In this document: one piece after another, positions 17,706 through 63,847 of the stretch
Numbering within the stretch: the stretch's first letter is position 1
Layout: each line of letters opens with the position of its first letter
Assembly: GCA_964654825.1 (NCBI GenBank)
Contig: CAZZKG010000006.1
Coordinates: 3,478-67,477 of the forward strand
Length of the DNA: 64,000 bases
Direction of reading: 5' to 3'
Source: an uncultured Gemmatimonadota bacterium
GTDB taxonomy: Bacteria; Gemmatimonadota; CAZMKB01
Notes under the pieces: model-generated
Database searches by the model: none
Seen by the model: only the letters and a program-made list of their open reading frames with translations
What the model was told of the DNA's origin: nothing
Translations under genes and position numbers: made by a program

Positions 17706-17871
17706 GGTTTATCCCCAAGTCGGTCACCAGTGCGATCGTGTGAACCGGAACGCATTATTGCGATGATCCACCACCGGAGAGTGGCGAGTCTATCACTCTG
17801 ATTGATCATTTCGGTAAAAATATCAATACTATTGTATCTCACCACTTAGCCCGTGTCAATGCTAAATGTTG

Positions 17872-17935
17872 TAAATAGGGACAGTCACCGTTTAATTGTC
17901 ACAATTTTAAATAGGGACAGTCACCGTTTAATTAA
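17872..17935. repeat. Two direct REP copies (TAAATAGGGACAGTCACCGTTTAATT) at the 3' side of the RAYT gene
   Basis: Copies at ~17872-17897 and ~17907-17935. The same core recurs at 18773-18800 (inverted), 21870-21897, 50515-50591 (doublet) and 63818-63847. Confidence 0.8.
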
Positions 17936-17940
17936 ATAGA

Positions 17941-18612
17941 TTACTCTCGCTTCCAGGGACGCCCCTTGGGCATAGCCCGTAATCGCCGGTTTAAATTTCT
18001 CTCCAGCTCGGAGATAAACCCATCACTCCCCAACGGACGACCTGTCCGGTTGGAATTACGTATTTGAATCAATTCATCCACATCCTCTGTGGATTGTAAC
18101 GTTGTCTTCCAGTCTTTCCTGATATTTTCATCGCACCAAGTCGACATATCGAGTAATCCTGTTGAGTCATGACCCGTCACATGCGCCTTCGCACTCGACC
18201 ACGGATAACACCAGGCATCTCGTACGATACCGGCTCTTACTGGATTCCTTTCTACGTATCGGACCGTGGCCCAATAGTGCATTGCATCGAGAGGACAAGA
18301 GTAAAATCGGGCTTGCCAAAGATGGCCACTCCGATTATTAAGACGATTAAAGTATTGCGCATATGAAAAGTGCGTTCGGCCGAGGGTTTTCGACAGAGAG
18401 TCCTCGTTTGCCGGGACAACAACAAGGTGAACATGATTGGACATTAGACAGTACGAGTGAACAGTGAGATGATAACGTTTAGATTGTTCTTTCAAATACG
18501 ATATATATCGTTCCCTTTCACCATCGATAGCGAAAACGTCCTGGCGGTTATTCCCGCGTTGCGTGACGTGATGTGGTACACCAATAGCCACTGCTCTTGC
18601 TATTCTGACCAT
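17941..18612 (-). mobile_element. IS200/IS605-like Y1 transposase of the REP-associated tyrosine transposase (RAYT) type
   Basis: HxH motif CLMSNHVHLVV, catalytic Tyr region HYWATVRYVERNPVRAGIV, ~220 aa. Flanked by REPs in inverted orientation. Confidence 0.8.
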
Positions 18613-18772
18613 ATGGGAAACCTGTTCTTGAGAAACGAGTCGGAAAACAGGGAGGATGAAGGGAGCACGTTACAGATATCTAGTCACAGACTCAGATGAA
18701 TCTCGGAGGGGGCAAGGATAACTATCTCTAATATCTATAAAAAAAGGGTACTGTCAAGTAGTAAATCTAAAT

Positions 18773-18800
18773 AATAAACGGTGACTGTCCCTATTTAATT
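18773..18800. repeat. REP copy (inverted orientation) at the 5' side of the RAYT gene, overlapping the stop codon of the 18795-20078 gene
   Basis: AATAAACGGTGACTGTCCCTATTTAATT is the reverse complement of the 17872 repeat. Confidence 0.8.
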
Positions 18801-20078
18801 TGGGCGAGAAGCGACTGCGAGATAGGTGCGCCTCTTCCAGGGCTCGTTGACATCGTGTCCCGCGTTGTATGCTAGGATGTATCGGCCGTGTTCTTCATCG
18901 ATCATGAGGGTCGGCGTACGCTGGAAGCCTTCAGGCGGTACGCCGTCGGGAAACTGCCCCGGTGCGATGATCGGGTTATCCGGATGGCCGATCCAGGTGT
19001 CGCCCCAGTCGGGTGACCAGTAATAGGCGATGTGTCCGTAACCGGCGTAGTTCTGATTTGAAACCATTAAAACCATGTGGACGCCGTCAGCGATTGAATC
19101 ACCCGTACAGTGGGCCTGCCAGGCGCCGCGAAATGAAAACCCCTCCGGCCACGGCAGCGTCCACCGATAGGCGGGATTGTCCGGGTCGGAAGGATCGAAC
19201 GTCGGCTCCGGATTCTTCACCCAGCCGGTCTTGCCATCCTCGCTGTCCGCGTAGGAAATTCGCCAGTTCCAGTAGGAGCCGGGGGATCCGTGCAACCCCC
19301 GGTAGAAAAGCCTAACCTTTCCCTGTGTGCCCAGGCGAGGCACCCAGACCGGTGTCGGTTCACTCAGGCCACCCTTTATCACACCGTTCTGATCCCAGCC
19401 CTCCTCCCACCAGTATTCAGCAACTAGCATGTTCTCGTAAGTCTGATCGAATGGGACTCCGATCGCAGGCGGCGTCTCGCTCGTCGCCACCTGGATTGCA
19501 GTCTCCGATCCCGGTAGACCATCCCACTCCGGATGCAGATACTTCGTGCCGGGTCTCACGGTGTTGTAGAGCAGATGCTCACCGGTTACAGGATGTTGAA
19601 TGTAACCGGGCGTATCGGTGTGTTCCCACGCGGGACCCGGGTTTTGTCCTCCGGGACTGACGAGGGGCGTGTATTTGATTTTCGTAACCGGATCGTAGCC
19701 CAGGGCCCAGTCGTGAAGCACTTCTTCCTGGTAGGGGTGCTCGGTCATGTATGTCGCGTGATAGCTGTGATACAGCAGCTTTATCATGCCACCCTCGAGA
19801 AAAATGAACTCTTCACCGACGATACCTCCCCAGTCGCCGTACAGGTGTGTCTGAGAATCAGGATAATCAGGATGGGGGGCTGTTATGAAACCGATGGGCG
19901 TGAAATCCGGCCATTCCCCCAGCGGACCGTCTTCGCCGAAGTTATGCGGTATGGCCAACCTGGGGGTGAGGAACTCATTGGAATCATTTGAATCCGCACC
20001 GTTCTGGGGCCGTAACGGGGAGAACAGGAGAAGACAGATCGAGAAGAAAGCAGTGATGATTATCGTGATGCGGTACAT
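18795..20078 (-). CDS. Secreted Trp-rich hypothetical protein (possible glycoside-hydrolase-like beta-propeller)
   Basis: Signal peptide MYRITIIITAFFSICLLLFSPL. No confident family. Last codon and stop lie within the REP. Confidence 0.35.
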   Translation of the reverse strand: MYRITIIITAFFSICLLLFSPLRPQNGADSNDSNEFLTPRLAIPHNFGEDGPLGEWPDFTPIGFITAPHPDYPDSQTHLYGDWGGIVGEEFIFLEGGMIKLLYHSYHATYMTEHPYQEEVLHDWALGYDPVTKIKYTPLVSPGGQNPGPAWEHTDTPGYIQHPVTGEHLLYNTVRPGTKYLHPEWDGLPGSETAIQVATSETPPAIGVPFDQTYENMLVAEYWWEEGWDQNGVIKGGLSEPTPVWVPRLGTQGKVRLFYRGLHGSPGSYWNWRISYADSEDGKTGWVKNPEPTFDPSDPDNPAYRWTLPWPEGFSFRGAWQAHCTGDSIADGVHMVLMVSNQNYAGYGHIAYYWSPDWGDTWIGHPDNPIIAPGQFPDGVPPEGFQRTPTLMIDEEHGRYILAYNAGHDVNEPWKRRTYLAVASRPN

Positions 20079-20567
20079 TGAAAGCCGAACTCCGTGTGAA
20101 GTGTGTGGTAAACAACTTCCGGCATGACATATCCCGAATCGAGTTCATTATACCAGAGAAAATCTGTCGTGTCAAGCTCAGGCAGTTCTTTTCCCTGATC
20201 AGAACCCGAGGTCGACCGACACTTTCGAAAAAGGATATCAATTCTGCCATGAAGAACTACCTTCACCGGTTGTCTGGGGATTTCCTGGATGAGGACATGA
20301 CCAGCTCTGCGGCTTCATAAAGCGAGCCATAGATCAAACAGGTCCCGCCCCTTCTTTCGTTGATAGAGAGCACACAACTTGGTGCCGAGTAACTATTCCA
20401 GTTGGTAGCTGATGATATCGGTTTGACCCGTGAATCAGGAGAGAATGCTTTTTAAAGGATTTTCTTCAGCTCAATAACAGGATAAATTAGGAATGCGAAA
20501 TTCGAAGGCATGTGATTTGTTATTTAATGATTGTGAATTACATTTCTTTCAACAAGGAGACTTCATG

Positions 20568-21459
20568 TATGAAAGCACCTGAGGATTTCAGATCCATCGA
20601 TCTTCAAGAAATTGTAATGCTCGCACAGAAAGCACTTACAGTGAATGGCATCAGCGAAAAAAACGCGGCTGCTATTGTGCGAGCTTACCTGGAGGCTGAA
20701 AAATGCCAGAAACGATCTCACGGATTTAAGCTGATTCCCTGGATTTAGGAACAATTCAAGAATATTGAGCCAGGCATTCCCACTGTGTTATCGAAGACTT
20801 CCAGTTCAATACTTCTTGATGGTGCAGCAAACCCGGGCCCACCTGTTGCTGAATTACTGGTCGATGAATTGCTTGATCTTACCGAGAAGACAGCGGTTGC
20901 AATCGGGGGCATTTGTAATGCAGGGCACATCGGTGTGCTTGCCTATTATGCACAAATGTTTTCCCAAAAAAACCGAATTGCATTGATTTTTGCAACCACA
21001 CCTTCTGTTACCGTGCCAATGGATGGAAAACTACATGTCTTGGGAACTAACCCGCTGTGCATTGCTGTTCCAACCAAAAACGATCCAATCATATTGGATA
21101 TGGGAACCACAGCCATTACATACCATGCATTGCTGAATTCCAAAACGAATGGGCATGAGCTGCCGGACAATGTGGCGCTTGATAAAGAAGGAAATCCAAC
21201 GAAAAATCCTGAGATTGCCGATCCGACCCGGTTGTTGACCTTTGGAGGATATAAAGGGTTCGGCATTTCCTTGATGATCGAAATATTGACGGGAGCATTG
21301 ACTGGTTGGCGAATCGGCGCTCAGAAAGCGAGGGAAATCAAGAACGACAGATTCGCAACTACTATGATCGTGGTTCGAGCAGATGCGTTTGTCGATGAAA
21401 AATTGTTTATAGAACTAGTGCTCTGTCATGTAAGAAGTGGCGTAAAGATTACGAAGTAA
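20568..21459 (+). pseudogene. Ldh_2 family (malate/L-lactate/sulfolactate dehydrogenase-like) oxidoreductase interrupted by in-frame TAG (20749-20751), within a low-GC island
   Basis: SHGFKLIPWI-TAG-EQFKNIEPG...LLDGAANPGPP spans the conserved SHG...DG.NG.G Ldh_2 region. Both ORFs share a frame. AAGGAGA RBS before ATG 20568. Local GC is visibly lower (~42%) than the flanks. Confidence 0.55.
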
Positions 21460-21505
21460 TTTTGTCTGCCTGCAAGGCTCGACTGAAGGAGCATAGCAGG
21501 GCTAT

Positions 21506-21757
21506 GTGACTGATGGAGCAACGCTGCAGGCAGATAAAAGAACAAGTAAGATACGTCAGTTGTTACATGACAGGGCACTAGTTGAATTGCTCAAGAAGGA
21601 TATCGCAGAGTCTCAAGAGATTGCAATTCCACGGCTTCCACACAGTGAGTCGATCTCAGCAAAAAGAATGCATGAAAAATCTGACACTATTGATATTCCC
21701 GTTGAACTACTTGAAACTCTGAAGTCTTTAACGGGACAGCATTCAAGCGACAACTGA
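21506..21757 (+). CDS. Small hypothetical protein in low-GC island
   Basis: 83-aa ORF, no recognisable domain. Same low-GC segment as the Ldh_2 pseudogene. Confidence 0.2.
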   Translation: MTDGATLQADKRTSKIRQLLHDRALVELLKKDIAESQEIAIPRLPHSESISAKRMHEKSDTIDIPVELLETLKSLTGQHSSDN

Positions 21758-21869
21758 ATCCGGCATTATCTTTTATTGACTATCAATAAAAATCAGTCCG
21801 AACGAACTGCGCGCTCGAGGAGCCTTGTGAGCATGTCAGTACTCCTTTCAACCGCTTCCAGCACCTCGC

Positions 21870-21897
21870 AATAAATGGTGACTGTCCCTATTTAGAG
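21870..21897. repeat. REP copy inserted at the 3' end of the PNP gene, supplying its last two codons and the TAG stop
   Basis: AATAAATGGTGACTGTCCCTATTTAGAG. It is flanked by two diverged ~60-bp copies of the gene's 3' coding end (21813-21870 and 21903-21963). Confidence 0.75.
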
Positions 21898-22925
21898 TGA
21901 ACTGCACGCTTGAGGAGGCAGGTGAGCTTGCCGGCGCTTCTTTCAACCGCGTCGAGTACCTCGCGGTGGGTGGTCCGGTGCCCGGGCCCGGAAGTGGGAT
22001 TTTCCGAAGAAGCCGTACCGGTGGACTTCGATGAGCCTGTTTCCTCGACAGGGGAGATTGAGAGATCCCGGCTCTCATATCGGTAGACGTGTGAATAGGT
22101 GTTGGTGATGAGGGAGATACAGGCCGTCTTCAGTCCGATGTGATTCGCGATGATCGTTTCAGGGATACTCGACATGGTGACCGCGTCGATTCCCATATTC
22201 CTGAGAGCGGCGATCTCGGCGATGGTCTCATACCCCGGGCCCGGTAGCGCGGCCAGGACACCGCGGGAGAGGGGGACACCTTCGTCCACTGCGGCACGCT
22301 CGATCCTACGCATGAGCCCGGGATCGAACGGTTCGACCATATCTACGAACCTCCCTATCCCTCTCACCCACATTTCTCTGAGCGGGCTTCGCCAGGATAG
22401 GTTCACATGATCACGAACGAGGAGGATATCACCGGGATCTAGACGAGGAGAAACACCTCCGGAGGCGCAGGTCATAATGATCTCGTTCACTCCGAGAGAT
22501 CTAACGAGACACAATGGATAGGCAATGTCCTCCGCGGCGATCCCCTCGTAGTAGTGGACTCGGCCGTCCAAGACGAGCACACGCGTGTCCCCCAGGGTGC
22601 CCCAGTGGAGCAGGCCGGCGTGTCCTTCGACACCCGGGACTGACATCCCGGGGATGTCCCGGTAGGAAAAGGTGTGGGAATTTTTCATCTCTCGGGGGAT
22701 CGCACCGAATCCGGACCCGAGGACCAGGCAGACATCCGCCCCGCCCATCCCTCTCTGCTTCAGATCAGCCGCCGCGGCTCTGCTGATTTTCAGAAGATGC
22801 TCCAGGCCGTCCCCGACACTCCTGCCTTTAACGCCGAATGTCGAGCCGGTATACAAGAGCGCCTTCCCGAGGAGAGTGGTAATAGTCCTTCTGAACCATG
22901 ACAAATGTGAACCCATTTTTTTCAT
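21888..22925 (-). CDS. Purine nucleoside phosphorylase family protein (PNP/MTAP type)
   Basis: CLVLGSGFG, HAGLLHWG, MTCASGG, ETIAEIAALRNMGIDAVTMSSIPE motifs of PNP_UDP_1. The true start is probably internal, because the track start overlaps rimI by ~100 nt. Confidence 0.75.
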   Translation of the reverse strand: MKKMGSHLSWFRRTITTLLGKALLYTGSTFGVKGRSVGDGLEHLLKISRAAAADLKQRGMGGADVCLVLGSGFGAIPREMKNSHTFSYRDIPGMSVPGVEGHAGLLHWGTLGDTRVLVLDGRVHYYEGIAAEDIAYPLCLVRSLGVNEIIMTCASGGVSPRLDPGDILLVRDHVNLSWRSPLREMWVRGIGRFVDMVEPFDPGLMRRIERAAVDEGVPLSRGVLAALPGPGYETIAEIAALRNMGIDAVTMSSIPETIIANHIGLKTACISLITNTYSHVYRYESRDLSISPVEETGSSKSTGTASSENPTSGPGHRTTHREVLDAVERSAGKLTCLLKRAVHSK

Positions 22926-49404: not shown

Positions 49405-50205
49405 TTACTCGAGGAACACATCCTCAACTCTCGGCTCGATGGCTATCCCGCGCTCTAGCTGAAGAACGGGTCGGACGACTATCTGCAAGGTCTTGAAGAA
49501 ATCCCGTATATCACCCACGAAGCTCCTTGGAACGTACAGGACATCCCCCGCCTCCAGATTGATGTTCTCTCCACCGGAACCCTTCACGAGAAAGTCCTGG
49601 AGATCGAGCCTCTCGAGATAGGGATCATCAATATCTCCCCGTATAAGAATAACGGAAGACTTGTTGCCGTCATTTGTAAAACCGCCGGCTTTCGCGATCG
49701 CTTCGACCGCCGATGTCGCGCTGTTCAGCACAAAGACACCGGGCTTCTCGACCTCCCCGAGGACGAAAATCTTCTGGCTCCTGAGTGAAATAACCTCAAC
49801 TCCGACCTGAGGATTGACGTAGTACCGAGCAAGACCATCCTGAACTGTCCGTCTCAATTCTTTGATGTCTACCCCTCCTGCTCTGATATATCCGAGGAAG
49901 GGGTAATAGAACTCACCCGAGACATCGAGCTTCACCTTCTTGTTGAGGTCTTCATGACCCCATACTCGGATCGCAAGCTCATCGCCGGTTCCGAGGATGA
50001 ACTCGGTAATGTGTGGGGGTGCCTCATCCAGTATCCGACCTTCCGGTTGATCACTGCCCGGGAGAGAACCGGCACTATTTGTTCCACCACTGCATGAAAC
50101 AGACATCAGACCTACACAGAAAAGGAGCAAAAGTTCTCTGAATATTGAATTGAAGGTGTTGAATAGAGGCGGAATCGAAACGTTAAAATTCCTGAAAATT
50201 TTCAT
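49405..50205 (-). CDS. wza: Polysaccharide export outer-membrane protein Wza (Poly_export + SLBB)
   Basis: Lipoprotein-like signal LLLLFCVGLMSVSCSG, GDELAIRVWGHEDL...YYPFLGYIRAGG (Poly_export), GDVLYVP SLBB. Confidence 0.8.
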   Translation of the reverse strand: MKIFRNFNVSIPPLFNTFNSIFRELLLLFCVGLMSVSCSGGTNSAGSLPGSDQPEGRILDEAPPHITEFILGTGDELAIRVWGHEDLNKKVKLDVSGEFYYPFLGYIRAGGVDIKELRRTVQDGLARYYVNPQVGVEVISLRSQKIFVLGEVEKPGVFVLNSATSAVEAIAKAGGFTNDGNKSSVILIRGDIDDPYLERLDLQDFLVKGSGGENINLEAGDVLYVPRSFVGDIRDFFKTLQIVVRPVLQLERGIAIEPRVEDVFLE

Positions 50206-50514
50206 AAATACACCCCCAGAGGCCAAGAAAACAGTTACAATATTACCCACAATCTGAATGTGTTTAGTCGAAGATACGGTTCACTATTTACTTGTGCATA
50301 ACCCGTACCACATTAAAGAAAATTTACTCTTTATTTAGACCCTGTCAAGTCTCATACCATCTAGGGGTTCCCTTGAATTCACCAATCGATTGGATAGTTA
50401 AAAGACGAAAATTTGATTCACCGTTCGCAGTGGTAATAAGAAAGACTATTCCCGTCACGATGGATCAGTCAAAGCGTACATTCCTTCACAATTTTTCCGG
50501 CGGGATCGACATTT

Positions 50515-50591
50515 ATAAATAGGGACAGTCACCATTTATTTAAAAATAACATAACGGTGACAAAAAAATAAATGGTGACTGTCCCTATTTA
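50515..50591. repeat. REP doublet: perfect 25-bp inverted repeat (ATAAATAGGGACAGTCACCATTTAT / ATAAATGGTGACTGTCCCTATTTAT) with 27-bp spacer, between the priming transferase and wza
   Basis: Arms at 50515-50539 and 50567-50591 are exact reverse complements, with the same core as the RAYT-flanking REPs. Confidence 0.85.
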
Positions 50592-50734
50592 TCGTAGACA
50601 ATGACAGCGGGTAGTCGAGGTTCCTGGCCAGGCGAGACGACGCAAGGAGTATCTTTAGTTACTCCGAGGAGTAGCAACGCAGCCAGGGGACTTGAGAGTC
50701 GCCTGAATTGGTGATGAATTTCTGGGACGGGACA

Positions 50735-51610
50735 CTAGATATTGATACAGTGGAGCATCCACCTCACGGTGGACAGGAGGAGTTTGACATCCAGCCAGAG
50801 AGACCAGTTTCTGATATACTCCAGGTCGAAATTCAGATTCTCGTGAATCAGTTTTTCTCTCGAAGCCTGGAGCTGCCAGATACCGGTGACACCGGGTTTC
50901 ATCTGCAGGCGGATTTCGTGAAGCTTGTTGTAGCCGATAACGATATACGGCATTTCCGGGCGAGGTCCTACGAGACTCATGTCACCTCTGAGCACGTTGA
51001 TGAGCTGGGGGAGTTCATCGAGTGATACCTTCCGGAGAAATCTGCCAAATCCGGTGAGTCGATCATCATCATGTGTCTTCGGGGAGAAATCATATTTGGG
51101 ACTGTCGATCTTCATCGTCCTGAATTTGAAAATTTTGAACGGCTTCCCTTTCAGATCATGAACGCGTCTGTCACCGGTCCTTCTGTTGAAAATGAAGGTT
51201 GTCTTGTTGCCGATACTTTCGATCTCTCTCCGGTCAAGCCTTCTCCTGTTCTGACCGATACGCTGCTGGGTAAAAAAGATCGGTCCCCTCGAATCGAGCT
51301 TGATCAGGAGTGCAACGAGGATAAAGAGTGGTGAGGTGATTATGACGAGACCTGTCGCGAAGGTGATGTCCATAGCACGCTTGATGAACCTCCGCCATGT
51401 CAGTGTAAGCGCCTGGATATAGGAACCGAATACAGCATACTTGCCTGATGATTCGATCGGTTTGTCGTATCCCCTCTCGACGAGACTCCGCTGATAGAGC
51501 TGGAGTATATCCCTGAAGCCTTCACCGGGACCAATCCACTTGAAGCGTTCTTTCGTCTCTATTGCCTGCATGTAATATTCACTGTCTTTTGTCTGCAGTC
51601 TTTTCTTCAT
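50735..51610 (-). CDS. Polyprenyl-phosphate sugar phosphotransferase (bacterial sugar transferase, WbaP/PglC-like initiating enzyme)
   Basis: RGPIFFTQQRIG...GKPFKIFKFRTM...LDELPQLINVLRGDMSLVGPRPE (PF02397), with an unusual ~40-aa insertion before the KFRTM motif. Confidence 0.8.
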   Translation of the reverse strand: MKKRLQTKDSEYYMQAIETKERFKWIGPGEGFRDILQLYQRSLVERGYDKPIESSGKYAVFGSYIQALTLTWRRFIKRAMDITFATGLVIITSPLFILVALLIKLDSRGPIFFTQQRIGQNRRRLDRREIESIGNKTTFIFNRRTGDRRVHDLKGKPFKIFKFRTMKIDSPKYDFSPKTHDDDRLTGFGRFLRKVSLDELPQLINVLRGDMSLVGPRPEMPYIVIGYNKLHEIRLQMKPGVTGIWQLQASREKLIHENLNFDLEYIRNWSLWLDVKLLLSTVRWMLHCINI

Positions 51611-52393
51611 ACACCTAATACACCTATCCGTTGGAGAGACTCAAGAAGTATGGGAGCTACTATCATAAGAGAGGAAAGACCTGGTTTATGGTTGATAGTA
51701 TGTTAAAAAAAATCATCTTCTGAACCCTGGTGAAACTTATTGTATCAGATTTTGAAGGTTTTGTCAAGTTAAAAAATTCCGGCATGGGAAAATTTATTCG
51801 GTCCAATTCCTACCCATTGAAAACCGGGGGGAAATGGTGCCCTGAACAGTGCATTTATCTCCTGAATTGTTATAGAAATATCCGGATGAAAAAACAAGAC
51901 CTGCCGGCTAACTCTCTTTAAAAAAAGGGGGGTTGGATCGGACACCTGATACCTCCCCCGGCACAGTCGAGCGTATCTTCCCCACTTCCTGGAAATTGCA
52001 ATTCTCATGCCAGCGACAACCATATTCCGGATTTGAGTTTTTCCTGATTTCTGATCAGACAGAGAAACAGGGGGTCACGGGGAGCGATTCCGCATATCAC
52101 GGTAAAGACAACCCCTGCCACCATCGCAGAACTGGTTGAAAGAAGGGCGCCAATCAGGCAGACATTTAGCGTGCGGCATGCCGTCCTGACATACAATGCG
52201 AAGGGTGCCCCGGGGCAGGTCGTTCGAACGAAGTCTCCATATTTGCCTTATCTGATTGGAATACAATGAGATAGAAACATCGCCCCGGGACAGAAGAACC
52301 ATGGCATAATCCTTGCCCTTCTGCACGGTATTATTGTGATCGCCGGCTTTCGGCGGGAGTATCTGATCCACGAGGCAAAAAGGAGTGATTTTT

Positions 52394-54298
52394 ATGAGTA
52401 AAGTCATCGGTATTGATCTCGGCACAACGAACTCATGCGTCGCAGTCATGGAAGGTGGAGATCCTGTGGTCATTGCCAACGCGGAAGGAGGCCGGACGAC
52501 ACCATCCGTCGTTGCTTTTACCAAGGATGGAGAACGGCTGACAGGGCAGGTTGCGAAGAGGCAGGCGATCACGAATCCTGAGAACACCGTGTTTTCCATC
52601 AAGCGGTTCATGGGCAGGAAGTTCAGTGAAGTCAGTGATGAAATCACGAAGGTGCCGTACGAGGTGGTTTCCGGGCCGAACGGTGATGCCCGGGTGAAGG
52701 CCGGCGGGCAGGAATACTCACCTCCTGAGATTTCCGCTATGGTCCTGCAGAAGATGAAACAGACTGCAGAGGACTACCTCGGTACGAAGATAACGAAAGC
52801 CGTCATTACGGTGCCTGCTTATTTCAACGACAGTCAGCGTCAGGCGACGAAGGACGCGGGCAGGATCGCGGGCCTGGAGGTACTGAGGATCATCAACGAA
52901 CCGACAGCTGCTTCCCTCGCGTATGGACTCGAGAAAAAGTCCGACGAGAAGATCGCGGTATTCGATCTGGGCGGTGGGACATTCGATATATCGATACTCG
53001 AGCTGGGAGACGGAGTTTTTGAGGTAAAGGCGACCAACGGTGATACCCATCTGGGTGGGGACGACCTCGACCAGAGAGTCATCGACTGGCTGGTGGGAGA
53101 GTTTAAAAAACAGGAAGGTATCGATCTCAAAAAGGATCCGATGGCACTCCAGCGACTCAAGGAGGCGGCCGAGAAAGCAAAATGCGAACTCTCGACGGTA
53201 CTCAAGACTGACATTAATCTTCCGTTCGTCACGGCTGACGCGAGCGGGCCAAAGCACCTCAATCTCACACTCACCCGGGCGAAGCTTGAGGAACTCATCG
53301 ATGACCTCATCGAACGCACCGTCAATCCCTGTAAACAGGCCATGGCGGATGCAGGGTTGAAACCGGGTGACATGGACGAAGTCATCCTGGTGGGTGGTGC
53401 AACGAGGATGCCCAAGGTTCAGGAACTCGTGAAGGAAATCTTCGGGAAGGAACCCCACAAAGGTGTCAATCCCGACGAGGTCGTTGCCGTGGGCGCCGCT
53501 ATCCAGGGTGGAGTACTCGCCGGTGAGGTTAAGGATGTCCTGCTGCTGGACGTGACACCGCTCTCCCTGGGGATCGAAACTCTCGGAGGAGTTTTTACCA
53601 GGCTCATCGAGCGCAACACCACAATCCCCACAAAGAAGAGTGAGATCTTCAGTACAGCGGAAGACAATCAAACAACCGTGGAGATACACGTGCTCCAGGG
53701 GGAGCGTGAGATGGCAATCTACAACAAGACGATAGGCAGATTCCAGCTCACAGGTATCCCCCCGGCACCCCGCGGGATTCCTCAGGTCGAGGTGGCCTTC
53801 GACATCGACGCGAACGGCATCATGAATGTATCCGCGAAAGACAAAGCTACCGGGAAAGAGCAGTCGATTAAGATCGAGGCTTCCAGCGGCCTGACCGAAG
53901 AAGAGATCCAACGGATGGTGAGAGATTCGGAGACCCACTCTGCCGAGGACGGTCTGAAGAGGGAAGAAGTCGAAACAAGGAACAGGGCTGACTCGCTCAT
54001 TTACGAAACGGAAAAGAACATCCGGGAAATGGGCGACAAGATCGGCGCGGATGAAAAAGCGAAAATGGAGACAGCGATGGAACGGGTGAAATCCGCCCTG
54101 AAGGGGACCGACATGAGTGAGATAAAGAAAGCTACGGAAGACCTGACGCAGACCTGGCATCAGGTGGCCAGCACACTCTATCAGCAGTCTCAAGCCTCTG
54201 ATACAGCACAGTCGACTGAATCTCAATCACCCGAACCTCCCAAGGAAGAGGTTGTGGACGCGGAATACGAAGTGGTGGATGAAGAAAAGAAAGATTGA
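52394..54298 (+). CDS. dnaK: Molecular chaperone DnaK (Hsp70)
   Basis: [29 protein letters not shown] Hsp70 signatures. AGGAG RBS 8 nt upstream of ATG 52394. Confidence 0.97.
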
Positions 54299-62585: not shown

Positions 62586-63502
62586 TCAGGCAGCCTGGCG
62601 ATAGTAAAACCGAAGCAGACCACCCAGGCGTTCCCGACATCGGATATCCTCATCAGTATCAACAGGTGTTGGTTCAGGATCAATGATCTGATTCGCAAGT
62701 CCTTGGTGATTCCGTTCCCGGTGGTAATGATCCAGGTAATTTCGAATAGTTCGCTGCAGTGATCCAACGCCGAAGAAGATCATCTTGTTCAGGCATTCAT
62801 GTTTTATGGATTTCACAAAGCGTTCAGCAAAAGCATTGCAATTCGGGGCTCTTACGGGGAGTGCGTGATTCCTGCAAGATAGACTTTTCGGGTCGAAAGC
62901 TCCATGAAGAATAGGATATAGAACGTTACAAGGCTACTGAGTGTCCACACCTCGACGGTGAAGAAATCGGCTGCAGTAAAGGTCTCCCAATGGACCTTCA
63001 AGAATGTGTTCCAGGTTGTTCGTTTCATACGCTCAGGTGCTGGCTCGATGCCATGACGCTTCAAGATATTTGCAATGGAGGTGGGAGCGACCTTGTGGCC
63101 GAGATTCTTCAGGGTACCTTGGATTCTATCATATCCCCAGCTCGAATTTTCGGTAGCCATGCGAACTACCAACTCGGTAATCTTCTTCATGACCGGTGGC
63201 CGTCCAGGACCCTTTCTCGGACAGGTCCATTTCAAGGCTGTGAGCTTTCGATGCCAGGCGATCAGGGTATCGGGAGTCACGATGGTGGCAAACCTGAATA
63301 GGAGCTTATGACCCAGTATCTTACTCTTCCTTGCAAGCCTGCGGCGCTGGTCATCGTTCAGCCTGAGACGTCTTCCTTTGTGGAGTTCCTTTAAAACTCG
63401 GTTTTCCTCGATAAGGTAATCAATGATATTCTGCTGATGCCTGTTGACCCAGCCAGAGAAGACCATCAGGAGCAGTTGTAGGGGTTGAAGTGTCGTTTTC
63501 AT
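62586..63502 (-). pseudogene. Degraded DDE (rve/integrase-core) transposase: N-terminal HTH + start of catalytic domain (62852-63502) and C-terminal fragment (62586-62816) in different frames, with the middle of the catalytic core missing
   Basis: N-part has the HTH and early rve region (TAADFFTVEVW...MELSTRKVYLAGITH). C-part has the rve C-terminal signature ...HYHRERNHQGL. The two parts are in different frames, and the combined length is ~100 aa short. Confidence 0.6.
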
Positions 63503-63817: not shown

Positions 63818-63847
63818 CCGTAAATGGTGACTATCCCTGTTTATACT
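63818..63847. repeat. Degenerate REP copy (CCGTAAATGGTGACTATCCCTGTTTATAC)
   Basis: Two mismatches to the REP core GGTGACTGTCCC. Confidence 0.5.

Follow-up and report, generated by a model that had tools for sequence, protein, structure and literature searches.

The gap between a priming sugar transferase gene and wza in an uncultured bacterium's polysaccharide locus holds a perfect inverted repeat, which raises the question of whether this element is a regulatory device belonging to the locus or a member of a dispersed repeat family that came to rest there. A first-pass annotation had taken the former view, describing a REP doublet that could act as an intra-operon attenuator and so decouple the transferase from export. 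Here, we examine the element within the window (the whole stretch of DNA that was analysed, 64 kb in length) and across other genomes. Our preferred answer, to which we assign a probability of about 80%, is that the doublet belongs, as a REPIN-like and non-autonomous repeat, to the RAYT/TIRYT-type transposase encoded at 17941–18612 in the same window; if it influences the glycan genes, it most likely does so incidentally.

The doublet and its place in the polysaccharide locus

An inverted-repeat search delimited two arms of 27 nt each, 100% complementary and 24 nt apart: a left arm at 50515–50541 on the plus strand, consisting of one full repeat unit (ATAAATAGGGACAGTCACCATTTATTT); an A/T-rich spacer of 24 nt at 50542–50565, read from the sequence; and a right arm at 50566–50592 on the minus strand, a full repeat unit in inverted orientation. 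The inverted repeat reported in the first-pass annotation is therefore real and perfect, although its dimensions had to be corrected from ~25 bp, a 27-nt loop and an end at 50591 to 27 bp, 24 nt and 50592. No other perfect long inverted repeat with arms <150 nt apart occurs in the window. When folded as RNA from the transcribed (minus) strand, the doublet reaches −48.4 kcal/mol (z = −9.3), a stability equalled by none of 200 shuffles, and as single-stranded DNA it reaches ~−26 kcal/mol on either strand (z = −10 to −11.5). The doublet recurs unchanged in L110–L112, three more assemblies made independently from the same population, so it is not an assembly artefact. A search for presence/absence polymorphism among assemblies encoding an identical transferase found the doublet in all of them; these near-identical strains thus revealed no transposition event and give no sign of recent mobility.

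The spacer itself contains a half unit, AACGGTGAC, at 50553–50561, which is identical to nucleotides 1–9 of the unit core in minus orientation; by our own estimate, the chance of such a 9-mer match within a 24-nt spacer is ~1e-4. This half unit ends at GGTGAC, and partial units in other genomes at GGGAC.

Several other identities for the element were considered. At the gathering score, Rfam 15 returned tRNA-Leu alone for the whole window, and permissive thresholds yielded nothing in the gap between the two genes except miRNA-hairpin look-alikes far below threshold. An integron attC site was rejected, as the ends of the doublet (ATAAATAGG and CCTATTTAT) have no RYYYAAC or GTTRRRY core sites, and a sigma-54 or ECF promoter reading was likewise rejected on sequence grounds. 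A second, imperfect hairpin lies at ~50612–50690, between the stop codon of the transferase gene and the doublet; the idea that it forms a repeat family with another hairpin at 21455–21535 was dropped, given ~60% identity and an unconvincing pattern search.

The gene context given in the first-pass annotation held up. The priming sugar transferase (Bac_transf, PF02397) is encoded on the minus strand at 50735–51610, with its stop codon 143 nt before the doublet, and the downstream neighbour, also on the minus strand, is a Wza-type export protein with Poly_export and SLBB domains (49405–50250). The two genes are separated by 484 nt, and wza is the first in a series of closely packed polysaccharide genes on the minus strand, with few or no nucleotides between them. 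Between the doublet and wza, ~170 nt downstream of the doublet, lies a promoter-like box on the minus strand (TTGACA-16-TAAATT, 50321–50348), which belongs to the context of the element and not to the element itself.

Comparison of DnaK puts the source organism near Candidatus Glassbacteria, Gemmatimonadota and Zixibacteria, with the best named match at 89% identity. The HSP70 gene in question (52385–54298, plus strand; 9e-274) overlaps a 502-aa open reading frame on the opposite strand (52718–54226), antisense to dnaK, which matches Pfam NAD-GH (PF10712) at 3.5e-131 and is most likely a shadow ORF, not a gene. Four relatives (L115, L199, L201 and L203) keep the synteny of Bac_transf and wza; identity to the window's transferase is 79% in L115 (62% for Wza), 73% in L199, a Glassbacteria MAG, and 74% in L201. 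In the comparison of related loci that the annotation had proposed as a check, the doublet proved absent from all four, and a search of ~55 kb from these relatives, gap included, found no unit at all. Such an absence was one of the two findings that the annotation had named as refuting its proposal. By contrast, the motif CTTGACA-N16-TAnATT occurs upstream of wza in 5/5 genomes (the window and the four relatives). In L199, the promoter-like box follows the Bac_transf stop codon by only ~130 nt; that contig begins ~166 nt after the stop codon, just past the box, and wza is missing from the assembly.

This conserved box between the doublet and wza suggests that wza probably starts its own transcription unit, and the doublet would therefore sit at a boundary, where the Bac_transf unit ends and the wza-led unit starts. 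Together with the absence of the doublet from four syntenic relatives, it marks the doublet, on the sequence record, as a lineage-specific insertion in a gene gap and not as a conserved intra-operon device; loss in the relatives, instead of gain in this lineage, is formally possible. The proposal of an attenuator that decouples the transferase from export finds no support in this comparison.

A version of that proposal in which the doublet is a selected attenuator, terminator or RNase barrier, setting the ratio of transferase expression to that of the export and modification genes, draws on the very stable RNA hairpin and on its layout: on the Bac_transf transcript, a 12-bp G+C-containing stem core stands between an A-tract and the U-rich tail UAUUUAU, which, together with its position after a gene, recalls a bidirectional intrinsic terminator. 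REPs, which in E. coli occur after genes, have been reported to terminate transcription and to stabilise mRNA (PMC6006769). However, the stem is 27 bp long, the loop measures 24 nt (compared with 3–8 nt in intrinsic terminators) and UAUUUAU is base-paired inside the stem. A consensus terminator scan of 50150–50850 called no terminator-like site, the doublet being passed over because of its 24-nt loop and the want of a free U-run after the stem. With the doublet missing from relatives that share the gene order, and with wza already provided with its own start by the conserved box, we judge selection for such a role improbable. Nevertheless, by analogy with REPs, the doublet could plausibly stop read-through transcription or shield the Bac_transf message at its 3′ end, although a measurable transcriptional effect at this site seems to us somewhat doubtful.

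A repeat family and a transposase gene in the same window

The sequence of the doublet arm has six matches in the window at ≤3 mismatches, against none in 100 shuffles, so the element belongs to a repeat family and is not a chance palindrome. The repeat unit (consensus TAAATAGGGACAGTCACCRTTTA) spans ~23–27 nt around a 17-nt core, AAATAGGGACAGTCACC, and has seven copies in the window, all of them extragenic or at stop codons, where 0 to 0.35 would be expected. Apart from the two arms of the doublet, these comprise two direct copies on the plus strand (17871–17897 and 17907–17933) and three on the minus strand: one at 18772–18798, which overlaps the stop codon of an ORF at 18795–20078; a solo unit at 21869–21895, which overlaps the stop codon of a PNP_UDP_1 gene (21888–22925); and a degenerate solo unit at 63820–63843 (TAAACAGGGATAGTCACCATTTAC). 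A literal literature search for the 12-mer core returned only unrelated human primer matches.

Two further features of this neighbourhood may be recorded. The degenerate unit lies ~320 nt from a fragment of an IS3/IS481-like transposase (62852–63502), recognised through HTH domains only, far below the model cut-offs. An Ldh_2 (malate/L-lactate dehydrogenase) gene is seemingly spread over three frames (20512–20748, 20785–21459 and 21506–21757), and an inverted repeat with 32-nt arms, 88% complementary (21413–21444 and 21552–21583), spans the second break; it may be a separate miniature insertion in an Ldh_2 pseudogene.

The two direct copies lie directly 3′ of the stop codon of a gene on the minus strand (17941–18612), ~32 kb from the doublet, and the unit at 18772–18798 lies upstream of it, so that the gene is bracketed by inverted units in a REPtron/TIRtron arrangement; a promoter-like TTGACA-16-GATATT follows the upstream unit at 18757–18730. 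The same sequence is thus found around this gene and at unrelated loci as well as in the doublet, which counts against an attenuator selected at the glycan locus and also separates the doublet from an ordinary intrinsic terminator.

The gene encodes a 223-aa HUH/Y1 tyrosine transposase of the RAYT/TIRYT type, with a match to Pfam Y1_Tnp (PF01797, IS200-like transposase) at 2.2e-13; the best NCBIfam model is REP_Tyr_transpos, at 66 bits under its cut-off of 80. Its motifs comprise N59-H60-V-H62 (the HUH site), W99 Q100, Y119 within YVERNP, and S139 S140 within PWSS, all of them invariant across an alignment of 29 homologues, and motif assignment points to Y119 as the catalytic residue. A C-terminal tail, TGRPLGSD.F..LE...GRR...GRP, is also conserved among homologues. 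When a family profile built on the 29-homologue alignment was compared with solved structures, E. coli TnpAREP (4ER8) came first (E = 3.7e-6) and the transposases of ISDra2 and IS608 next; a search with the 223-aa sequence alone gave E = 0.11 against 4ER8.

The label "REP doublet" from the first-pass annotation therefore needs qualification. It is apt insofar as an inverted pair of dispersed repeats shares its unit with a flanked IS200-like transposase gene. However, single units remain unfolded in the source genome (−1.9 to 0 kcal/mol; z from −1.1 to +1), and neither GTAG nor GTGG adjoins any unit in the window; on both counts, this is not a canonical REP with its GT[AG]G tag.

The unit and the transposase in other genomes

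We scanned 596 Gb of sequence, in which each species was represented by a single genome, for the 17-mer AAATAGGGACAGTCACC and found at least 109 loci. As ~70 chance 17-mer matches are expected in a dataset of this size, single matches without flanks, seen in Bacillota, Bacteroidota and Pseudomonadota, were treated as chance. Among the matches listed, 122 of 142 occurrences of the 17-mer carried an extended palindromic flank, and flanked units were found in assemblies labelled Planctomycetota (29), Hydrogenedentota (9) and Acidobacteriota (4), as well as Verrucomicrobiota, Nitrospirota, Fischerbacteria and others. Assemblies bearing the labels of at least eight phyla share an identical 17-nt core, and the unit consensus in these other genomes, AAATAGG-N8-CCTATTT, is a 7-bp palindrome. 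The unit has variants of the form ACC-T/G/A-ATTT. One full unit with extended flank lies on a contig labelled Candidatus Bathyarchaeia (L063), which could reflect a mis-binned bacterial contig or a transfer.

The association between unit and transposase gene recurs in these genomes. A homologue of the transposase (39–59% identity) was present in 13 of the 109 loci found by the 17-mer alone, among the matches listed, and most of these homologues lay directly between inverted units (L021, L029, L038, L045, L054, L082 and L105 among them). Two more homologues, recovered through protein search (62% and 55% identity), were likewise flanked by inverted units. The unit at L197 reads GGGGACAG, agreeing with 8/8 positions of the GGGGWSAS motif described for a known class of terminal repeats, the unit in the window reads AGGGACAG, agreeing with 7/8, and one homologue locus from the protein search carries GGGGACAGTCACC. 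No recognisable unit was found around the homologue in L195, a complete 3.8-Mb Phycisphaerales genome. One Holophagales contig, DCUZ01000099 (L029 and L045), holds two homologues ~24 kb apart, each between inverted units, which shows that genomes in this lineage carry multiple copies. Protein search returned at least 7,978 homologues in all, mostly labelled only "transposase". Many of those listed as P0001–P0120 sit on contigs of only ~0.9–1.5 kb, which, we infer, would fit with assemblies that break off at the repeats on either side of the gene.

These patterns bear on a reading in which the Y1 gene plays no part and a classical DDE-type transposase has mobilised the doublet as a miniature element (MITE) of its insertion sequence. 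The structure would suit such an element, a short stretch without coding capacity lying between inverted terminal repeats, and the IS3/IS481-like fragment has a degenerate unit close by. However, it is Y1 transposase genes, and not DDE genes, that accompany the unit from phylum to phylum; solo units and direct tandem units exist, and the doublet is bordered by no unambiguous target-site duplication. We accordingly find a DDE origin barely credible.

Doublets elsewhere resemble that in the window. Among the matches listed, close pairs of units were oriented "+ then −" in 41 cases and "− then +" in one; 41/46 thus share the orientation of the window doublet, which is also that of the units around the transposase gene, and all close pairs fold into long hairpins. 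Where the context could be classified, 32/34 doublets were extragenic (19 between tandem genes, 10 between convergent genes and three between divergent genes), often 0–15 nt from a stop codon; this preference for sites after tandem or convergent genes is one that a selected attenuator or terminator could share.

The same survey informs a further alternative, in which the doublet is a pair of inverted double-stranded protein-binding sites, bound by the C-terminal tail of the transposase or by a host regulator and serving neighbouring promoters. In several genomes the unit does abut the TTGACA −35 box of the transposase gene, and the invariance of its core over phyla is what would be expected of a protein recognition site. 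Against this, the two sites may be as little as 12 or as much as 139 nt apart, they are also found 3′ of stop codons and where genes converge, the nearest promoter-like box to the window doublet is ~170 nt away, and Pfam detects no HTH domain (nor a DnaA_C match) in the transposase, even at E = 10. An operator pair is therefore, in our assessment, very unlikely.

The distances between unit cores are less easily accommodated. Across genomes, they cluster at 30–37, 59–65 and 99–102 nt (~32, 62 and 101 nt), with L018, L035, L058 and others in the ~62-nt class and L011, L024, L032, L041, L075, L088, L091, L101 and L103 in the ~100-nt class; the window doublet, with a core distance of 52 nt, falls outside all three modes. 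Centres of the ~100-nt class are unrelated to each other, even within one assembly, and have a host-like G+C content. Tested as native terminator hairpins, these long centres gave a folding z of ~0, and a search for a shared motif among them found no k-mer above shuffles. Homology between centres from one genome was seen in a few pairs (CBDVBS and JAPLKX), and a few ~60-nt doublets share centres. Fixed length combined with unique centre sequence is not predicted by a model in which all doublets are copies of one master, and units may instead be inserted at a measured distance from one already in place. In L010, L036, L054, L071, L072, L073, L095 and L103, partial units (AAATAGG or AAATAGGGAC) immediately precede full ones; these, like the half unit in the spacer of the window doublet, may mark where units were broken or joined close to their centres.

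A broader reading of these observations would make the unit the transposase-recognised end of a pan-bacterial RAYT-like clade, whose doublets, set at ruler-like distances of ~32, 62 and 101 nt around unique host DNA and preferring the 3′ ends of genes, act as portable bidirectional terminators or insulators; the window copy would then be an insulator installed by the transposase between Bac_transf and the wza promoter. We regard this as unlikely.

Under the REPIN-like reading that we prefer, a HUH transposase of the RAYT/TIRYT type would use the unit as its terminal inverted repeat. By analogy with IS200/IS605 TnpA and TnpAREP, the enzyme would recognise a single-stranded DNA hairpin formed by the unit or doublet, such as might arise on the lagging-strand template, and would cleave and rejoin it via Y119 and the HUH metal site, so seeding copies into gene gaps. 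The window copy would have landed between the stop codon of Bac_transf and the promoter of wza.

Relation to known systems and significance

RAYT-like genes flanked by long terminal inverted repeats, as opposed to GTAG REPs, have been described before (Di Nocera 2013, PMC3733652), the arrangement being named TIRtron and the protein TIRYT; many of the terminal repeats share GGGGWSAS and are dispersed as singles, dimers and clusters (PMC3733652). Most TIRYTs have been placed in TnpAY1 subclass 2.1 (Quentin 2018, PMC6006769), which corresponds to RAYT group 1 (Bertels 2017, PMC5581495) and is marked by the signature NHVH / W[EQ] / Y[IV]xxNP / SS and by a C-terminal extension, with proteins of 238 aa at the median (PMC6006769); the extension is described as having HTH- or Bac_DnaA_C-like similarity.

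The system in the window matches this class in most respects. Its protein of 223 aa falls within the ~220–240 aa typical of the class, with NHVH, WQ, Y..NP, SS and a conserved tail, and its gene is bracketed by inverted GGGGWSAS-type repeats that have dispersed copies and a wide, patchy taxonomic spread. It differs in that the 17-nt core is identical over at least eight labelled phyla, a conservation not stated in those papers, and in its host, a Glassbacteria-like organism of the FCB group. Moreover, whereas no REP-like sequences were found next to subclass 2.1 genes in the earlier survey (Quentin 2018, PMC6006769), the subclass 2.1-type gene in the window does have flanking repeats.

Likeness to the REPIN–RAYT systems of Pseudomonas and enterobacteria (RAYT groups 2 and 3; Bertels and Rainey 2011, PMC3116915) extends to the hairpin doublet of inverted units, the presence of these units on both sides of a cognate tyrosine transposase gene and the extragenic location. 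However, canonical REP units are self-palindromic and bear a 5′ GT[AG]G tag, neither of which applies to the units in the window, and descriptions of REPIN families have them inherited vertically and specific to a lineage, whereas the unit core here is common to phyla. Similarly, TnpAREP (4ER8), which acts with the REP/BIME elements of E. coli, is the closest relative of the transposase with a solved structure, but sequence similarity is distant, the repeats differ in sequence and architecture, and the window protein has an extra C-terminal tail. The doublet is thus closest, by the features compared here, to the TIRtron/TIRYT class and is not a canonical GTAG REP; as far as sequence allows such an assignment, it adds a member to a class that has been described but little studied.

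For the glycan locus, this makes the doublet a passenger repeat at a transcription-unit boundary and removes a regulatory story that was tempting but unsupported, although its hairpin may end or stabilise the Bac_transf message, which is relevant when transcript data are interpreted. For the family, the repeat AAATAGGGACAGTCACC and its cognate gene give a sequence-defined handle on a very large and poorly annotated set of "transposases", and recognising the unit would aid the annotation and assembly of MAGs. A protein of 223 aa and a DNA of 27 nt make a tractable pair for the study of how group 1 RAYTs act.
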